Assembly: GCA_964243405.1 (NCBI GenBank)
Contig: CAXTFJ010000005.1
Location: 9,882-73,881 of the forward strand
Direction: 5' to 3'
From: an uncultured Lichenihabitans sp.
GTDB taxonomy: Bacteria > Pseudomonadota > Alphaproteobacteria > Rhizobiales > Beijerinckiaceae
Length of the DNA: 64,000 nucleotides
Position numbers and translations under genes: made by a program. The notes beneath the pieces are model-generated. The model ran no database searches. It worked only from the letters and a program-made list of their open reading frames with translations, and was not told the origin of the DNA. Below, piece by piece: positions 2,372 to 62,391 of this stretch (positions within the stretch are counted from its first letter, which is position 1; each line of letters begins with the position of its first letter).

Positions 2372-3400
2372 TCATACGGCCGTCAGATAGGGCGCGAAAC
2401 TGCGCGGCCGCTCGATGATGGCCACGATCTTGAGCTGCGCGATGGAGCGCTTGCAGGCGGCCGCGAGGTGGTCGCGCCACCATTCCGCGGCGGCCCGCGC
2501 CGACCCGTTCAACAGCAGGTCGATGGCGATCCGCAGTTCGGACACGGCGGTCTCGTCGTGCGGCAGGCCGAGGCGGTCGAGCGAGCGGGCAACCGCTTCG
2601 AGCGGCATAAGGTTGTGCCCGATCGCGTCTGCCAGGGCCTCGTTGCGGGTGCCCAGGACGCAGATTTCAAGGAAGTCGCGGAACAGCGAGGGCGCGTCCA
2701 CGCCGGGGTCGCCGTCGTGCCCCTCGGCACCGGACGCCCGGTCGCGCAGTTCGAGCAGCCTGGAGCGATCGATCGACGGCGCGGCCTCGGCCAGGGCCGC
2801 GGGTTCGAGGACGGCGCGCAAGGCGTAGCGGTCCTTGATGATCTTCGCGGTGAGGGGGCCGGCGATCCAGCGCGCCTGGAGCTTGCGCAGCAGCCCGCGC
2901 TCCTGCAACCGCCCCAGCACGTCGCGCACGACGGTTCGGCTGACCCTGTAGTGTTCGGCCAGTTCCGCCTCGACGATGCGGAACTGGCCGAACACGACGC
3001 AGCCCGCCACCTCGGCTTCCACGTCCGCCGCGATGCGTTCCCATGAGCCGCGCGCTTGCAGCGCCTCGTCGACGTCGTCGGACACGAGTAGGCCGAGCTC
3101 GCGCAGATCCGTCCTGATCGGCCGCAGTCCCGCCCCGGGCTGCCCCACGAGGAAGCCGCGGCCGTCGAACCGGTGGACCAGCTTGTCGCCTTCGAGGCGC
3201 CGCAAAGCCTTCTGGACGGGCGCGCGGCTGGTCTGCAGCAGGCCCGCGAGCGGCATTTCCAGCAGCACCAGGCCGCGGGGGAACCGGCCCTGCTGGATGT
3301 TGGCGCGCAGCACCCGGTGGACGAGCTCGTGTCGCTTCTCGAAACGCACTTCGGCGCCGGCGGCGCGATCCAGGACATCCGAAGGGGGGTCGTGCCGCAT
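2372..3400 (-). CDS. GntR-family regulator with two tandem wHTH domains plus FCD domain
   Basis: HTH1 ...LLQTSRAPVQKALRRLEGDKLV...GRGFLV; HTH2 ...EAELAEHYRVSRTVVRDVLGRLQERGLL; FCD-like C-terminus. Confidence 0.88.
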   Translation of the reverse strand: MRHDPPSDVLDRAAGAEVRFEKRHELVHRVLRANIQQGRFPRGLVLLEMPLAGLLQTSRAPVQKALRRLEGDKLVHRFDGRGFLVGQPGAGLRPIRTDLRELGLLVSDDVDEALQARGSWERIAADVEAEVAGCVVFGQFRIVEAELAEHYRVSRTVVRDVLGRLQERGLLRKLQARWIAGPLTAKIIKDRYALRAVLEPAALAEAAPSIDRSRLLELRDRASGAEGHDGDPGVDAPSLFRDFLEICVLGTRNEALADAIGHNLMPLEAVARSLDRLGLPHDETAVSELRIAIDLLLNGSARAAAEWWRDHLAAACKRSIAQLKIVAIIERPRSFAPYLTAV

Positions 3401-3638
3401 GCGTCAGGAACGTCGTTTGTGTGCAGTCGTATTGAACACTATGGCCGGATGTGCCTTGCAGGCAAGAATAAGGTTCAAACAAATCCTGTGCAGAATGCCG
3501 TGCCTTTGGGCGGCGGGCGCCCACTAGATGGCCTTGCGTACAAAAGACGTTGTTTCTAGGCTAGCGGACGTTCGGCTTCCAGTCGGTGGGCAGCGCTTGC
3601 GGTCAGCCACCAATCGTTTCGATGCAGGCTCCAGCGCC

Positions 3639-4721
3639 GTGTTGCGCATCGAGGGCGTGTCGAAGAGCTACGGGCCCAAGCTCGCGCTCGACGACGTCAC
3701 GTTGAGCTTGGCGGACGATTGCTACGTGGCTCTCCTGGGATCGAGCGGCTCGGGCAAGACCGTCCTGCTGCGCGCCATTGCGGGCTTCGAAACGCTCGAC
3801 CGGGGTAGCGTGATGCTGAGGGGGCAGCCGCTGGCGAGCGTCCCCGCGCACCGGCGCAGCATCGGCTTCGTGTTCCAGAACTTCGCGCTGTTTCCGCACC
3901 TGTCGGTAGAGCAGAACATCGGCTTCGGGCTGCGCAACCGGGCCGAGGGGGCCTTGGCGCCAAAGGTGGTCGCCGACAGGGTCCGGGCCATGGTCCAGCT
4001 GGTGGGCCTCGCGGGATTGGAATCGCGGGCCGTGACGCAGATCTCCGGCGGCCAGCGCCAGCGCGTAGCCCTCGCCCGCACGCTCGTGACCGAACCCCGG
4101 CTGGTTCTGCTCGACGAGCCCCTGGGCGCGCTCGACGCCAACCTCCGCACCCGGATGTGCGGCGAGCTCCGCCGCATCCGCGAGAGGCTCGGCGTGACCT
4201 TCCTTCACGTGACGGGCAGCGAAACCGAGGCTCTCGCGATGGGCGACGAGGTGGTCGTGCTCGACGAAGGCCGGATCGCCCAGGTCGACGCGCCCGACGT
4301 CGTCTACGGACGGCCCGCGGATGCGCGCGTGGCGCGGTTCCTCAACTGCTACAACCTGTTCAGGGGCCGTTCCGGACCGACGGGTTTCGAAGCCGAAGGG
4401 GCCGTGCTGCCCGTCCCCACGGGTCGTGGCGGGTCGAATGAGGCCGTCTACGCGGTGCGCCGCGACCTCATCCTGGTCCGCGACCCCGCCGCGGCCGCGG
4501 CCCCCGACGAAGGGCGGATCGCGGCCGAGTTCGTGACGAGCGAATATTCCGGTCCGTCCGTCACCTCCTTCTTCCGCCTCCCAAGCGGCGCGATCGTCAC
4601 GGTGGACGACCACCTGAGCCACCGCGCCGTGCCCTCGTTCGAGCCCGGGCACCGCTACGACCTGGCGTGGAAGCGGGACGACGCCCTCGTGCTCGGCTCG
4701 GGCCGCGAGCGGCGCGCATGA
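3639..4721 (+). CDS. ABC transporter ATP-binding protein (PotA/MalK-like) with atypical H-loop
   Basis: GSSGSGKT, VFQNFALFPH, ISGGQRQR and LLDEP present; H-loop reads VTGSE. Start uncertain (GTG 3639 preferred; ORF open from 3528). Confidence 0.9.
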   Translation: MLRIEGVSKSYGPKLALDDVTLSLADDCYVALLGSSGSGKTVLLRAIAGFETLDRGSVMLRGQPLASVPAHRRSIGFVFQNFALFPHLSVEQNIGFGLRNRAEGALAPKVVADRVRAMVQLVGLAGLESRAVTQISGGQRQRVALARTLVTEPRLVLLDEPLGALDANLRTRMCGELRRIRERLGVTFLHVTGSETEALAMGDEVVVLDEGRIAQVDAPDVVYGRPADARVARFLNCYNLFRGRSGPTGFEAEGAVLPVPTGRGGSNEAVYAVRRDLILVRDPAAAAAPDEGRIAAEFVTSEYSGPSVTSFFRLPSGAIVTVDDHLSHRAVPSFEPGHRYDLAWKRDDALVLGSGRERRA

Positions 4722-56210: not shown

Positions 56211-56295
56211 GCGGCCATGGCGGAATTGGTAGACGCGCTAGCTTGAGGTGCTAGTGGGGAGACCCGTGGAGGTTCGAGTCCTCTTGGCCGCACCA
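56211..56295 (+). tRNA. tRNA-Leu(GAG)
   Basis: GCGGCCA acceptor stem, CTAGC-TT-GAG-GT-GCTAG anticodon arm, long variable arm, GTTCGAGT and CCA. Confidence 0.97.
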
Positions 56296-56303
56296 CTCTG
56301 ATT

Positions 56304-57410
56304 TTATCCTATTGTTTTCATTGACGTTTTGTCGCTCGCTCCCGCACCTGACAATGAGGTGCGGGAATAGAGGTCGCCCGTTCGTTCTCCGGCGGACATC
56401 TTCGACATCGCTTCGATCGCAAGCCGACGCCTGTTGGCCGCCCGCGTGTAGAGCGCCGCCATGCCGCCGCCGTGCCAGCCGAAGATGGCCTCGAGCTGCG
56501 CCTCGCTCGCGCCGTTCTCAGCCGCGCGCGTCGCGCCCAGCTTGCGCAGGCCGTGAGCCGATCCGCTCACCCCTGCCGCGTTGCACGTGTCCCGGAACCA
56601 GTTGCCGAACGACTCCTTCGTCATTGGGCGGCCACCCGCGCCGGTGATGAACGCGAGGTCGGTCGAGGGCGCAGCCGCAAGACTGGTCGCGAGCTCGGGA
56701 AGCACGGGCAGGACGACGACCTGACCGGTTTTCGCCGTCCGAAACGTGATCACGCCGTCCCGGAGATGCTGACGGCCGAGCTGCGCGAGGTCGCCGCGGC
56801 GCAGGCCGGTATAGAGGGCCAGATCGAACGCCAGGCGCTCGCGCGTGCCGAGAGGCCAACGGGCCTCGAAACGGACGACCTCGTCTTCCGTCCACACCTT
56901 GAAGCCTTCCGTGCGGGGCTTGACGGCCTTGACGCCCTCGGTCGGGTCGGTCGTCACATGATCCGCGCCATAGGCCCAGCGGAACAGCCCGCGCATTGCG
57001 TCGAGGAAATTCTTCGCCTGGAACGGCGTGTCCTTCCGGCGATCGACGCCCGCCTGCACGGCCTTGCGGGTAATGGCCGCGAACGGCTTGTCGCCCGATT
57101 GGTCGAGCACATGCCGGAAGATGGCCTCGCGCTGCTTGCGCGTCGCCATCGACAGAACCATCCACGCCTGGGTTTCACGGTAGCGTTCGATCAGCCACTT
57201 CAGCGAGCCGGTCGGCGCACGCTTGCTTGCCGTGGTCGGCAGGTCGCCGGCCACGGCTGCCCTGTAGGCTTCATCGAAGGCCGGAGTGCCGTAGTCCGCC
57301 TTGATCCGTATGCGCGGGCCCCGATTCACGCGGACGTACCAGACGAGCGTCCCGTGGCGTGTGCGTTCGTGCTGGAGGTGCGGAGGGCGGGGACGGGGCA
57401 TGTCACCCAT
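56304..57410 (-). CDS. int: Tyrosine recombinase/phage integrase
   Basis: YTGLRRGD (R), TAK (K), HGLRK (HxxR), FGW and ALYTR (Y); N-terminal arm-binding-like region. Confidence 0.95.
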   Translation of the reverse strand: MGDMPRPRPPHLQHERTRHGTLVWYVRVNRGPRIRIKADYGTPAFDEAYRAAVAGDLPTTASKRAPTGSLKWLIERYRETQAWMVLSMATRKQREAIFRHVLDQSGDKPFAAITRKAVQAGVDRRKDTPFQAKNFLDAMRGLFRWAYGADHVTTDPTEGVKAVKPRTEGFKVWTEDEVVRFEARWPLGTRERLAFDLALYTGLRRGDLAQLGRQHLRDGVITFRTAKTGQVVVLPVLPELATSLAAAPSTDLAFITGAGGRPMTKESFGNWFRDTCNAAGVSGSAHGLRKLGATRAAENGASEAQLEAIFGWHGGGMAALYTRAANRRRLAIEAMSKMSAGERTGDLYSRTSLSGAGASDKTSMKTIG

Positions 57411-57592
57411 CACAGCACGATGTCCTGCTCGGGCTCAACGCTTGTCCAGCGGCTCGTCTTGGTGCCGGGAGTGCGGACGATGCGGATCGTACCGTCCGGC
57501 GCGACCTCGACGGCATAGTCCGGTCCGGCTTGTTCCGCCGCCCGCAAGGCCCGGCGCAGGTCCGCGACGGTGAAGCGGGCAGGGCGGTTCAT
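57410..57592 (-). CDS. Excisionase-like small protein
   Basis: MNRPARFTVADLRRALRAA...VEVAPDGTIRIV; overlaps the int start, the classic RDF position. Confidence 0.65.
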   Translation of the reverse strand: MNRPARFTVADLRRALRAAEQAGPDYAVEVAPDGTIRIVRTPGTKTSRWTSVEPEQDIVL

Positions 57593-60045: not shown

Positions 60046-60177
60046 ATGGATTGGAACAGCTTGGCTCTTCCGGTCATGGCTCTCGCAACGGGCGCCCTGG
60101 CCTTCGCCTACGTCTGGATGCGGTCGAGGGCCTTTGACCGGAAATACGGGCACCGGCCGCCGGTCGCGGGCGAGTAG
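60046..60177 (+). CDS. 43-aa single-TM peptide (below the ORF-track cutoff)
   Basis: MDWNSLALPVMALATGALAFAYVWMRSRAFDRKYGHRPPVAGE*; GAGGA 9-13 nt upstream. Confidence 0.65.
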   Translation: MDWNSLALPVMALATGALAFAYVWMRSRAFDRKYGHRPPVAGE

Positions 60178-60546
60178 TCACCCGGGGCGGAGGAGCGCCA
60201 CTTCGGGCAGCTGACCTATCCGAGACGGCGAGACGCAGCGCTCAAGGGTCGAGCGCAGAGCCGCGATGGCCGCGACGCACTCCTGCTCGCCGAGACAAAG
60301 CTCCACGCACGGATGGGCGGGCTGCTCCACGACCGCGCGGCGTTCCGCGCTGTCGAACTTGCGCGCGATCGCCCGCAGCGCTTCGGCGATGGCTTGGGCC
60401 TGAGGTTCACCCAGCCAGAGCGGAACGTCGACCGGGTCGGAGTGGTCCTTCCGCGCGACCTTCAGCAGCTTGTCGATGGCGCTGGCGACCGTGCCAGCGT
60501 CTACCAAGGGCAGGGCGTCAGAGTGGGAACTGGGCGGGGGCAGCAT
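60178..60546 (-). CDS. Phage hypothetical protein (122 aa)
   Basis: GAGGG RBS; co-oriented with the early operon. Confidence 0.55.
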   Translation of the reverse strand: MLPPPSSHSDALPLVDAGTVASAIDKLLKVARKDHSDPVDVPLWLGEPQAQAIAEALRAIARKFDSAERRAVVEQPAHPCVELCLGEQECVAAIAALRSTLERCVSPSRIGQLPEVALLRPG

Positions 60547-60553
60547 CGCGCCC

Positions 60554-60739
60554 TCACGCCAGGATGATGCGGGCGCCGACGCCGCGGATGCGGACGACGC
60601 GGCCGAGGGCGACCAGCTCGCGCACGGCAGCCTCGAAGGCGTCGACGGCCATCTTGAGGGCGGACCGGAGCGGGAGCGTGCGGGCCTCGCCGTTGAGCAG
60701 GCGGAGGCGGGAGACGATCAGGAGGGCGTTGGGGGACAT
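60554..60739 (-). CDS. Small hypothetical protein (61 aa), first gene of the leftward early operon
   Basis: Lies directly downstream of the left operator pair. Confidence 0.5.
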   Translation of the reverse strand: MSPNALLIVSRLRLLNGEARTLPLRSALKMAVDAFEAAVRELVALGRVVRIRGVGARIILA

Positions 60740-60785
60740 GGGCTGGGCTCATCGCGGGTTAGTGACTACATTCCCAACTTGTCTT

Positions 60786-60817
60786 ATGCGTATGCGGATG
60801 TCAATGCGAACGCGGAT
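60786..60817. promoter_or_regulatory. Left operator pair (OL-like) flanking a minus-strand TTGACA
   Basis: ATGCG-TATG-CGGAT at 60786 and ATGCG-AACG-CGGAT at 60804; tgtcaa at 60799-60804. Confidence 0.75.
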
Positions 60818-61635
60818 TATTTTTCCGGGTACGAAATGTACAAGACTTTTCGCAGCCACACCGCCTTGATTCCAGAAACGGGGCCGCCCAGCGTAACTAC
60901 GGTGTGATGAGAGGTATTATCTGAATGGAACAGACGTCCAATAAATGATCTTCCATCGTCGAGCAATATCAAACTAAGCGCGCCATAAAGATCTCTGAAT
61001 AAAGATTTTTCTAATAAATCAATGTAGAATACACATGACTCATCTAAAATGGGATAATAAGAGCCATGATCAAAGACTAAACCAACCATGGTCCTTGTAA
61101 AATCTGGTGGTGCTTTTGCTAGAGAATGGCCCCACCCACCTTTGGCTTGGAGATAATCCTCTATCTCCTGCCTGTAAGCAGTTCCATCTTTAGATTTTTC
61201 GTCATCGTCTAAAATCCAAAACGTTCTTGCAGCATCCTCCATCAAATCTACTACGGGGTGAGTGCTTTTCTTTGTGCGTGATCCTAGAACCTTCTCAACT
61301 TCGTAGAAATTGACTTTGCCGCCGGCATCAACTCCACCAAGGACCGGAATATAGACTGGACCAGGCTTTTCCGACCAGCGAAATACGTCATTAAAGCCAT
61401 CTATCAGCCCAATCTCAATTCTACGCTCTTTAGAGAAAGACATAAGAGCTTGTAAATTCTCCAGCGTCGGCTCTGACCCGTTCTCCCAGCGAGATACGCT
61501 AGCTTGCTCGACACCAAGTTCTTGCGCGAATTCAGCTTGCGTAAGCTTCACGGCTTTACGAAGCTTCCTAATCCGCTCCGGCAGGCCTTGAGCCTCGTCC
61601 ATTTCGAATTTCGACCTTTTCATACGAAATAGCAT
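60817..61635 (-). CDS. CI-like repressor (XRE HTH + degenerate S24-like domain), AT-rich
   Basis: RIRKLRKAVKLTQAEFAQELGVEQASVSRWENG; IPVLGGVDAGG; start at 61635, 61623 or 61602. Confidence 0.88.
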   Translation of the reverse strand: MLFRMKRSKFEMDEAQGLPERIRKLRKAVKLTQAEFAQELGVEQASVSRWENGSEPTLENLQALMSFSKERRIEIGLIDGFNDVFRWSEKPGPVYIPVLGGVDAGGKVNFYEVEKVLGSRTKKSTHPVVDLMEDAARTFWILDDDEKSKDGTAYRQEIEDYLQAKGGWGHSLAKAPPDFTRTMVGLVFDHGSYYPILDESCVFYIDLLEKSLFRDLYGALSLILLDDGRSFIGRLFHSDNTSHHTVVTLGGPVSGIKAVWLRKVLYISYPEK

Positions 61636-61767
61636 ATACCGTCTCGGATTAAATCCCAATCCGCATCCACATAGCTTGAAGTGGTTCTCGCTTTTATATA
61701 TACGACGGCGGATAAGAGCGCCACGGTAGGATCCGTTGAACCCAATCAAGCACATACGTAAGCGGAT
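61636..61767. promoter_or_regulatory. Right operator array (OR-like), four copies of the ATRCG-N4-CGGAT motif
   Basis: Copies at 61636, 61659 (reverse orientation), 61700 and 61754. Confidence 0.72.
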
Positions 61768-61972
61768 TTTCGGCGTCCTCCAGCGCGACTTCGCGTCAGT
61801 GGCAGGCGTTTCACAGGGCACTGTTTCCCGATGGGAGAAGGGTGAGTTTGAACCCACCAGAGTTCAGCTCGCAAATATTCGGGAAGAGGCTCGTCGGCGA
61901 GGCCTTCCCTGGAACGATGCTTGGTTTTTCGATCCTACGCCGTCTCCCATTGCAGAAACTCCGACGATATGA
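61736..61972 (+). CDS. Cro-like XRE HTH protein
   Basis: QRDFASVAGVSQGTVSRWEKGEFEP; divergent from the CI-like gene; TTG start with GGTAGG RBS. Confidence 0.88.
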   Translation: MNPIKHIRKRIFGVLQRDFASVAGVSQGTVSRWEKGEFEPTRVQLANIREEARRRGLPWNDAWFFDPTPSPIAETPTI

Positions 61973-62391
61973 ATTCCTCCTTCTCGCCGGTCCCCGCCCA
62001 CCCCCCAACGGCTCAACCGGGCCCGATCCTGAACCGCCGCCGACTCCTGGCCTTCCTTGGCCTCGCGCACGCTGCAGCCCCCGCGCTGGCTAAGGCCACC
62101 CTGGGCGCGCCCGACAACTTCGGCTTCGCCGCCGCCCCCTCGGCCTTGGACCGGTCCACGAGCAACCTAACCCTCACGGTCGACCACGGCCTGGACTTCG
62201 AACGGTTTGAACGCATTCTTGCCGAAGACCGAGCACTGCTCGAAGCAGCAGGGTTGGGCGGCCACTTCCCCAAAGCGAGCGAGCCGTTTCCCTCAGGTGC
62301 GCAGAATGCGCCGGCTAAGCGGATCGGCTTCGACGCCGCCCCGGCGCCCGGCGCCGCGTTCCTGTTCGACGACGTCGGGAGCGGCCCGTGA
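61969..62391 (+). CDS. Hypothetical protein with a twin-arginine-like segment
   Basis: ATGA overlap with cro; NRRRLLAFLGLAHAAAPALA. Confidence 0.55.
   Translation: MNSSFSPVPAHPPTAQPGPILNRRRLLAFLGLAHAAAPALAKATLGAPDNFGFAAAPSALDRSTSNLTLTVDHGLDFERFERILAEDRALLEAAGLGGHFPKASEPFPSGAQNAPAKRIGFDAAPAPGAAFLFDDVGSGP

Follow-up and report, generated by a model that had tools for sequence, protein, structure and literature searches.

The window analysed here, the whole stretch of 64,000 nucleotides, corresponds to positions 9882-73881 of contig C5 of the draft genome of an uncultured Lichenihabitans sp. with a GC content of 69%. It carries a phage-like element at tRNA-Leu(GAG), which may be an integrated prophage or satellite, and within this element a repressor gene and a cro-like gene diverge from each other, with 112 bp between the repressor ATG (61623) and the cro TTG (61736). 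Six copies of a 14-bp pseudo-palindrome are found around the repressor gene. The stretch from the stop of this low-GC gene to the first leftward open reading frame (ORF; start 60739) contains sites 1 and 2, and sites 3-6 span the gap between the repressor gene and the divergent HTH_3 gene of 78 amino acids (aa). From the sequence and its relatives we consider it likely that the six sites serve as operators in an immunity switch of CI/Cro type, of the P22 c2/434-like kind. The two genes and the six sites are the following.

60817..61623, minus strand: repressor gene, 268 aa from the ATG at 61623, end includes the stop
61736..61972, plus strand: cro-like gene, 78 aa, HTH_3 with E 6.3e-7, TTG start
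60786-60799: site 1 (left operator OL1), ATGCGTATGCGGAT, minus-strand reading ATCCGCATACGCAT
60804-60817: site 2 (OL2), ATGCGAACGCGGAT, minus-strand reading ATCCGCGTTCGCAT
61636-61649, plus strand: site 3, ATACCGTCTCGGAT
61659-61672: site 4 (right operator OR2 by position), minus strand ATGTGGATGCGGAT, plus strand ATCCGCATCCACAT
61700-61713, plus strand: site 5, ATACGACGGCGGAT
61754-61767, plus strand: site 6, ATACGTAAGCGGAT, inside cro

All six pseudo-palindromes, which the initial annotation had already placed here, were read directly at these positions. Their consensus was ATRYS-N4-CGGAT, a pseudo-palindrome of the half-site ATnCG in which the right half, CGGAT, was invariant. With respect to the generic dyad ATnCG-N4-CGnAT, sites 1, 2, 5 and 6 were perfect, and sites 3 and 4 were each mismatched in the CG of one half-site. 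The degenerate pattern ATRYSNNNNCGGAT, derived from the six sites themselves, had six matches in the window versus 0.80 expected from whole-window shuffles. In 5000 dinucleotide shuffles of the local low-GC stretch (60740-61800) the mean was 0.024 matches and the maximum two, and six were never reached. A genome-wide scan, which had been suggested with the initial annotation, showed that the motif is not equally frequent elsewhere and forms no other cluster in the 4.94 Mb: the pattern had 62 matches, with no pair closer than ∼2.3 kb outside the locus, and AT.CG....CG.AT had 49, of which both clusters within 150 bp were those of the switch locus. The bare core GCGGAT was unenriched in the window (73 observed, 76 expected); only the full dyad is informative. 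A host regulon was also considered and rejected, as no further site or cluster scored highly, within the element or genome-wide, with a position weight matrix built from the six sites.

A shared layout of probable operators among relatives

Because the repressor is a near-orphan, for which a homologue search gave one distant match restricted to the helix-turn-helix (HTH), the Cro-like protein was used as the handle for the family. Genomes, metagenomes and IMG/VR were scanned and yielded more than 150 loci with Cro homologues of 34-67% identity. The 123 loci that were non-redundant and had a locatable cro start (530 kb), many of them on viral contigs of 36-60 kb, were analyzed further; the set was gathered via Cro and is hence biased toward similar operators.

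The generic dyad matched 281 times in these 530 kb, with about five matches estimated by chance from the base composition. The matches were concentrated at a few positions relative to the cro ATG. The interval from -30 to -21, the place of OR1, held 77 of them, and 76 of the 123 loci had an OR1. Another 56 fell at -60 to -51 (OR2), OR2 being 31-33 bp upstream of OR1, and about 24 in the OR3 zone (-110 to -75) at the repressor start. Nearly all remaining dyads were located at -700 to -1300, where an OL pair follows just past the repressor gene. No dyad was present inside cro in any of the 123 loci, which bears out the earlier description of the intragenic fourth site in the window as unusual. 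The family comparison is free of the circularity of a pattern taken from the window and therefore provides independent support.

The dyads were arranged around promoter-like hexamers in a recurrent way. The rightward promoter (P_R) of the family read OR2, 6-9 nt, CTTGCA or CTTGAC, 3-6 nt, and OR1, the last T of which opened a TATATT followed by 6 nt and the ATG of cro. Expressed as hexamers this is CTTGCA/CTTGAC-N17-TATATT, with OR1 in the spacer and the cro ATG 5-8 nt after the -10. The leftward promoter (P_L) had the same design (OL2, 8 nt, TTGAC, 3-4 nt, and OL1 overlapping the -10), and OL2 was positioned 0-130 nt past the repressor stop. In 40 of 44 loci the repressor ATG was 36-37 nt from the edge of OR2, a distance that fits the order -35, N17, -10, N7, ATG, with OR3 over the -10. 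The cro mRNAs (mostly) and the repressor mRNAs of the family are predicted to be leaderless.

Within the same genus, the element of genome G030 encodes a Cro that is 57% identical to that of the window and a divergent repressor, likewise low in GC. Its dyad, ATTCG-N4-CGAAT, has two copies at the repressor 3' end and two in the divergent region, the same architecture as in the window. Base 3 of the half-site was T in eight of eight half-sites in G030 and in none of 12 in the window, a contrast that fits different immunity specificities. On contig C39 of G030 (L014 8518-8560, the same as L016 3133-3175) OL2, ATTCGAATTCGAAT, lies inside the last repressor codons and encodes the C-terminal ...NSNSN.

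Across the family, base 3 co-varied with the recognition helix of the repressor. The helix QSTVNRW was associated, in all loci that had it, with ATCCG and ATGCG, strictly one each per site, except that two HQSTVNRWT loci were all-ATGCG. QGSVSKWE was associated mainly with ATTCG (four of four), and Q[AP]TVSRW with ATACG and ATGCG mixed freely within one locus. Co-variation of this kind would be expected for a repressor and its operators, and no other evidence for an operator role of the dyads is as strong. The helix of the window repressor, EQASVSRW, resembles the Q[AP]TVSRW class, and P0002, a repressor with the helix EQATVSRW, is flanked by ATAC-type dyads. P0002 (helix GVEQATVSRWEKG) is the sole detectable relative of the window repressor and comes from a Logan contig of SRR28386231 (L230), on which ATACGCATGCGTAT, ATACCGATCCGTAT and ATACCGACGCGCAT lie at both ends of its gene (3131-3195 and 3876-3926). 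The called P0002 ORF is over-extended through the upstream sites, and no divergent cro homologue was seen on this contig.

Two alternative assignments of base 3 were rejected. The Cro helix does not appear to set it, as QGT-type Cro proteins were found with the A/G, C/G and T classes. Nor does the Glu of the EQAS helix appear to read the C of ATCCG, as at least 17 relatives with ATCCG have SQST and not EQAS. Immunity specificity probably resides in the repressor, because the Cro helix is the same in the window and G030 and the operators are different. In the C/G class, which comprised at least 17 loci (among them L172 2441-2487, L100, L112, L174 and L193), the dyad was always ATCCG-N4-CGCAT and strictly asymmetric. 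It kept one fixed orientation to the lytic promoter at OR1, OR2, OL1 and OL2, which is unexplained for a presumed homodimer.

The dyad positions in the 123 relatives, the co-variation of base 3 and the architecture shared with G030 thus support, at the level of sequence comparison, the OL/OR switch that the initial annotation had inferred. A narrow literature search, which included the Caulobacter XRE factors, found no description of an ATnCG-N4-CGnAT operator family, and this alphaproteobacterial switch family is apparently large and undescribed.

Predicted promoters, proteins and proposed operation of the probable switch

The predicted promoters of the window copy, including that of the repressor (P_RM), and two additional dyads are the following.

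60799..60804, minus strand: predicted P_L -35, TTGACA, with a one-base overlap with each OL site
60776..60781, minus strand: candidate P_L -10, CAAGTT, 17-nt spacing, a weak match of low confidence
61631..61659, minus strand: predicted P_RM, TTGGGA (61659 to 61654), 17 nt, TATGCT (61636 to 61631), 7 nt, ATG 61623
61675..61704, plus strand: predicted P_R, CTTGAAG (61675-61681), then the run TATATATACG (61695-61704)
61622-61635, minus strand: degenerate dyad in the canonical OR3 place, ATACGAAATAGCAT, minus-strand reading ATGCTATTTCGTAT, one mismatch to the generic dyad
61571-61584, minus strand: weak extra dyad within the repressor gene, ATCCGCTCCGGCAG, one mismatch, possibly chance

On the OL side, the TTGACA is flanked by sites 1 and 2, 0-30 nt past the repressor stop and upstream of the leftward genes that end in xis/int. 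The earlier statement that a minus-strand TTGACA separates the two sites was confirmed at 60804 to 60799; site 1 on the minus strand follows directly 3' of it, and base 60817 is both the end of site 2 and the third base of the repressor stop TAA (60819 to 60817). Read leftward, sites 1 and 2 agree with C/G-class OL sites in both sequence and orientation. Site 1 is oriented as OL1 of these relatives (ATCCGTTTGCGCAT) and differs by one base from OR2 of L172, ATCCGCATGCGCAT. The distance between OL and OR is ∼0.87-0.95 kb, with paired sites at both ends.

The divergent region contains four sites and one degenerate site, and their overlap with promoters was judged only by the predicted promoters and the family geometry. 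The P_RM geometry is common to the Bosea locus L015 and the Methylobacterium locus L017, and the repressor mRNA from this predicted promoter would be leaderless. The degenerate dyad at 61622-61635 extends over the predicted P_RM -10 as far as the repressor ATG; its counterparts are T-ATGCGTCGTCGCAT-G in L015 and T-ATGCGAATTCACAT-G in L017. The initial annotation had regarded the full operator code as readable, which was overstated, as this dyad, located where OR3 is canonically found, adds at least one more site of degenerate sequence. Site 3, non-canonical in position and orientation, falls within the predicted 17-nt spacer of P_RM and is therefore a candidate for autorepression. Site 4 is located between the back-to-back -35 hexamers of the predicted P_RM and P_R. 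Its center is at -42.5 from the repressor ATG, the predicted transcription start, its orientation is canonical as in C/G-class relatives, and its edge (61659) is 36 nt from the ATG at 61623, compared with 36-37 nt in 40 of 44 relatives. Site 5 extends over the TATATA run and the predicted P_R -10/+1 region, and it is likely the main operator repressing cro. Site 5 or 6 was also considered as the canonical OR1 of a leaderless promoter and rejected, as a suitable -35 is missing and no ATG stands at the required distance.

Three in-frame ATGs are available to the repressor (61635, 61623 and 61602); 61635 is the start in the public gene call (272 aa). The start at 61623 (268 aa) is favored because in the family the ATG lies 36-37 nt from OR2; with this start, 61635-61633 falls inside the predicted -10 region. 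Between the ATGs at 61623 and 61602, positions 61603-61614 read TTCGAATTTCGA, which resembles the operator words of G030 (TTCGAAATCGAA), out of the 5-4-5 register, and may be a relic or chance.

The repressor gene has a GC content of 40-50%, within a genome of 69%. An N-terminal HTH_3 domain was detected in its product (E 1.8e-13), and both the repressor and Cro match PHROG repressor/regulator families. In a phmmer search of PDB the best match of the N-terminal domain was P22 c2 (E 2.6e-5, ∼40% identity over 60 residues), and Foldseek of the AF2 model returned 1adr, 3jxb and 2r1j (40-41% identity, TM 0.63-0.75, N-terminal pLDDT 80-95); 434 Cro and repressor were also among the best sequence and fold matches. 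The C-terminal part can be aligned to S24 domains of relatives on either side of a 52-aa insert. Pfam S24 did not match the repressor even at E 10, and a profile comparison to S24 gave 98.9% with the full-length protein and a weak 22.7% (E 9e-4) when restricted to the C-terminal domain. The AF2 model of the repressor had low confidence (pLDDT 62), and the lambda repressor C-terminal fragment 2ho0 was found at rank 30 (TM 0.60, E 0.04). From these comparisons the C-terminal domain is a probable, divergent S24-like domain. In a weak alignment the catalytic Ser is kept (HGSYYP, G[DN]SM in relatives) and the catalytic Lys is absent in either register (SFIGRLFH, FIKTI or TLKEL in relatives). Because of this S24-like domain without a catalytic Lys, RecA-type self-cleavage appears unlikely, and the repressor would probably not be inducible that way. 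The repressors of L174, L179, L185 and L177 have the same HTH and operators and a short, non-S24 C-terminal part, and the C-terminal domain is therefore regarded as exchangeable within the family.

By alignment, the window Cro fits the family with its Q[GA]T[VI]SRWE helix and RRGLxWxDxWFF tail. Its helix, SQGTVSRWE, is identical to that of G030 Cro, and the repressor helix, EQASVSRWE, is similar. The gene is preceded by GGTAGGA (61725-61731), its leader would be ∼25 nt, and the TTG is 33 nt after the TATATA run. Site 6 occupies cro codons 7-11 (ATA CGT AAG CGG ATT; I-R-K-R-I), 54 bp downstream of site 5. The right half of this site requires R10-I11. The sequence IRKRI is unique to the window Cro and occurs in none of the 123 relatives, the family sequence being IRK[NTS]V.

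In the proposed mechanism, the dimeric 268-aa HTH repressor would bind the 14-bp ATRYS-N4-CGGAT dyads, and the small cro-like HTH protein would probably bind the same dyads. Repressor dimers on sites 1 and 2 would occlude the P_L -35 and thereby shut the leftward early promoter. Site 4, at -42.5 of the leaderless repressor start, could help or tune P_RM, and occupancy of site 5 would block P_R and hence cro and the rightward replication genes. At high repressor levels site 3, perhaps together with the OR3 relic, would shut P_RM (negative autoregulation). Site 6, about five helical turns past site 5, may contribute cooperative binding or a roadblock, and looping between OL and OR over ∼0.9 kb would be possible. 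The perfect dyads at sites 1, 2, 5 and 6 and the mismatches at sites 3 and 4 fit a switch whose lytic promoters are filled first.

Alternative readings

Several points weigh against a CI/Cro-type switch that operates as proposed. The shuffle and genome figures are partly circular, because the pattern was defined from the six sites. The spacer of the predicted P_R (61682-61698) has no dyad, i.e. there is no OR1. At P_L the canonical -10 place (TAAGAC, 60786 to 60781) is only 12 nt from TTGACA, and the OL pair is compressed to 18 bp, versus mostly 31-32 bp in relatives. Sites 3, 5 and 6 run opposite to the orientation seen in the family. The window cro has a leader and a TTG, and all 123 relatives have an ATG at this place or within two codons of it (the search preferred ATG). 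G030 has an identical Cro helix and different operators, so that Cro binding to the window sites is uncertain. A strict sigma-70 and terminator scan of 60500-62100 found nothing in either intergenic region, and all promoter assignments therefore rest on family geometry. The split of the VapE-like gene points to possible decay of the element. This gene (L068 3325-4709, corresponding to window positions 63444-64828 and partly past the window) consists of two overlapping frames of 340 aa and 165 aa, both matching PF05272; the split is likely a frameshift and therefore a sign of decay or an assembly error. The departures of the window copy from the family plan fit either a rewired or a decaying switch.

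A rewired family member would be a switch in which a leadered TTG-cro replaced the ancestral leaderless cro, whose operator was in the promoter spacer, and came under a repression loop or roadblock at sites 5 and 6. The same proposal takes the ATCCG/ATRYS asymmetry, found in at least 17 relatives, to mean that the two halves are read differently, by two subunit poses or by CI and Cro, and takes the helix residues to set base 3 as a readable code that would give orthogonal repressor/operator pairs. Taken jointly, these three statements are tentative and on the whole rather unlikely to hold.

If the element were instead a cryptic, decaying prophage or satellite, with P_L and P_R miswired, the sites would be a fossil array that at most autoregulates the repressor. 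The missing OR1, the 12-nt spacing at P_L, the TTG of cro and the split VapE described above would all agree with this, as would the lost S24 Lys of the repressor. However, decay should erode the sites, and CGGAT is invariant in all six, with four perfect generic dyads. Site 6 needs two residue changes that are unique to the window Cro and resemble a gain, and the reading frames of the repressor, cro and integrase are intact. We regard a relic of this kind as unlikely.

It is more doubtful that the array comprises two operator sets, with sites 1, 2 and 4 (ATG[CT]G..CGGAT) serving Cro or an ancestral specificity and sites 3, 5 and 6 (ATAC[CG]..CGGAT) a newly acquired low-GC repressor. The sites do split three versus three in base 3, orientation and position, the near-orphan repressor lies in a low-GC patch, and L079 and L230 combine EQA[ST] helices with ATAC-type sites. 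Yet Q[AP]TVSRW loci mix ATACG and ATGCG, so that one repressor plausibly reads both, and P_L, which has to be repressed in a lysogen, carries ATG-type sites. The occurrence of QGT-type Cro helices with the A/G, C/G and T classes alike also speaks against a separate set for Cro.

A role in another DNA transaction, as replication iterons, integrase/excisionase arm sites or boxes of a host regulator, is very improbable. Primase, VapE and helicase genes do lie within 2-4 kb, and short repeats near an integrase can be arm sites, but the window sites are dyads and not direct iterons, none is close to the integrase or att, and the element and the genome contain no additional copies. Moreover, every relative has the dyads on promoters at the two ends of its repressor gene, whatever lies beyond. 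Finally, the idea that an AT-containing word recurs by chance in an AT-rich patch (40-50% GC within a 69% GC genome), with site 6 as a by-product of coding I-R-x-R-I, is scarcely credible: the pattern is post hoc, and I-R-x-R-I with CGN arginines automatically spells ATnCG-N4-CGnAT, but the dinucleotide shuffles bring the idea close to refuted, the positional footprint across the family is independent of the window, and the 123 relatives lack IRKRI.

Known systems and the element context

Read as the operators of a CI/Cro-type switch, the six sites can be compared with known systems. As in lambda, a repressor gene and cro diverge, several pseudo-palindromic operators lie over both promoters (here predicted), and a second operator group is found at the leftward promoter beyond the repressor gene. 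Both also have a site near -42 of the repressor promoter and a site within this promoter that in lambda allows, and in the window would allow, autorepression. Lambda CI activates PRM from the position that site 4 matches (-42.5), and the PRM-cI mRNA is leaderless, as predicted for the window repressor. In contrast to lambda, the dyads are 14-bp 5-4-5 words and not 17-bp sites, OL has only two sites and is ∼0.9 kb from OR (2.3 kb in lambda), and the S24-like domain lacks the catalytic Lys. The label "lambda-like" of the initial annotation is accordingly apt for the OL/OR logic and not for the proteins, whose HTH domains are of the P22 c2/434 type (HTH_3); the window Cro is all-helical and does not have the lambda Cro fold.

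P22 c2 and 434 are nearer to the window in their proteins, being the best matches of the repressor N-terminal domain. In these systems too, both switch proteins have similar recognition helices, and the dyads are short with an unconserved 4-bp center, which their DNA-binding domains leave non-contacted. The operators of 434 are 14 bp long, often with one half better conserved. The window and its family differ from both in the half-site (ATnCG, compared with ACAA in 434 and TnAAG in P22), in the strict ATCCG/ATRYS asymmetry, in the operator inside the window cro, and in their alphaproteobacterial promoters, from which the family is predicted to produce leaderless cro and repressor mRNAs. The Rhizobium/Sinorhizobium phage 16-3 is an alphaproteobacterial temperate phage with a 434-like C repressor and with OL and OR flanking the repressor gene. 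Its operators, ACAA-N4/6-TTGT, are unlike the window dyads.

The closest likeness is to the Hyphomicrobiales-centered family itself (Bosea L015, Methylobacterium L017, Lichenihabitans G030/L016 and IMG/VR contigs). The window shares with it the Cro homology, the dyad, the OL pair past the repressor stop and OR2 at 36 nt from the repressor ATG, and sites 1, 2 and 4 match the C/G class (ATCCG-N4-CGCAT). It departs from the family in lacking OR1 in the P_R spacer, in its leadered TTG cro, in the 18-bp OL spacing, in the inverted and displaced sites 3, 5 and 6, one of them intragenic, and in its near-orphan repressor with the 52-aa insert. The logic of the switch is thus ordinary, as in lambda, P22 and 434, and the existing understanding of how CI/Cro-type switches work is unchanged; what stands out, to a modest degree, is the family-level pattern, together with the atypical local layout.

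The analysis provides a proposed wiring diagram of a prophage-like element, with operators, likely promoters and a repressor start at 61623 instead of 61635. It also delineates at least 120 temperate-phage switches, mostly from Hyphomicrobiales and relatives, that follow a conserved operator grammar. These could help to predict the immunity groups to which prophages in soil- and plant-associated Alphaproteobacteria belong, and could serve as a source of orthogonal repressor/operator parts for such hosts.

Two members of the Cro family were of unusual assignment. The Microcystis phage Mwe-Yong1 (L069; MZ436628.1), which is Mu-like (transposase, MuB), encodes a Cro homologue of 51% identity and has its own 5-4-5 dyads at 3940-4010 (ATACC-N4-GGTAT, ATACGCTTTGGTAT and ATACGAATTGGTAT); the deposited 'repressor CI' coding sequence (locus 3269-4222) is over-extended across the divergent cro. 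Apart from this phage, the Cro family points to alphaproteobacterial hosts. A contig of a Candidatus Saccharibacteria metagenome-assembled genome (L019; CAYYSG010000004.1) carries a canonical switch of the alphaproteobacterial type, with ATACG/ATTCG dyads and an S24 repressor (GPSM...VKEL), and is probably mis-binned.

The element is integrated at tRNA-Leu(GAG) (56211-56295). Next to the tRNA come a tyrosine integrase encoded on the minus strand (coordinates given as 56211-57413) and a string of leftward genes; no dyad is near att or the integrase. A search for attR with the tRNA-Leu 3' end gave only a 21-nt match on another contig, which is not decisive. To the right of cro, a DUF7146-Toprim primase, the split VapE and a DEAD helicase are encoded within 2-4 kb. 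The contig ends 5.8 kb past the window. The ORFs that follow P_L are these.

60554..60739, minus strand: first ORF downstream of P_L, 61 aa, no family match
60178-60546, minus strand: second leftward ORF, 122 aa; further leftward genes follow toward xis/int

Opposed to this leftward operon, positions 60047-60177 of the plus strand encode a small membrane protein, which contains the motif (R/A)(S/A)FDRK(Y/H). This protein is conserved in the G030 element, where it has two copies (L014 6518-6661 and 8284-8417).

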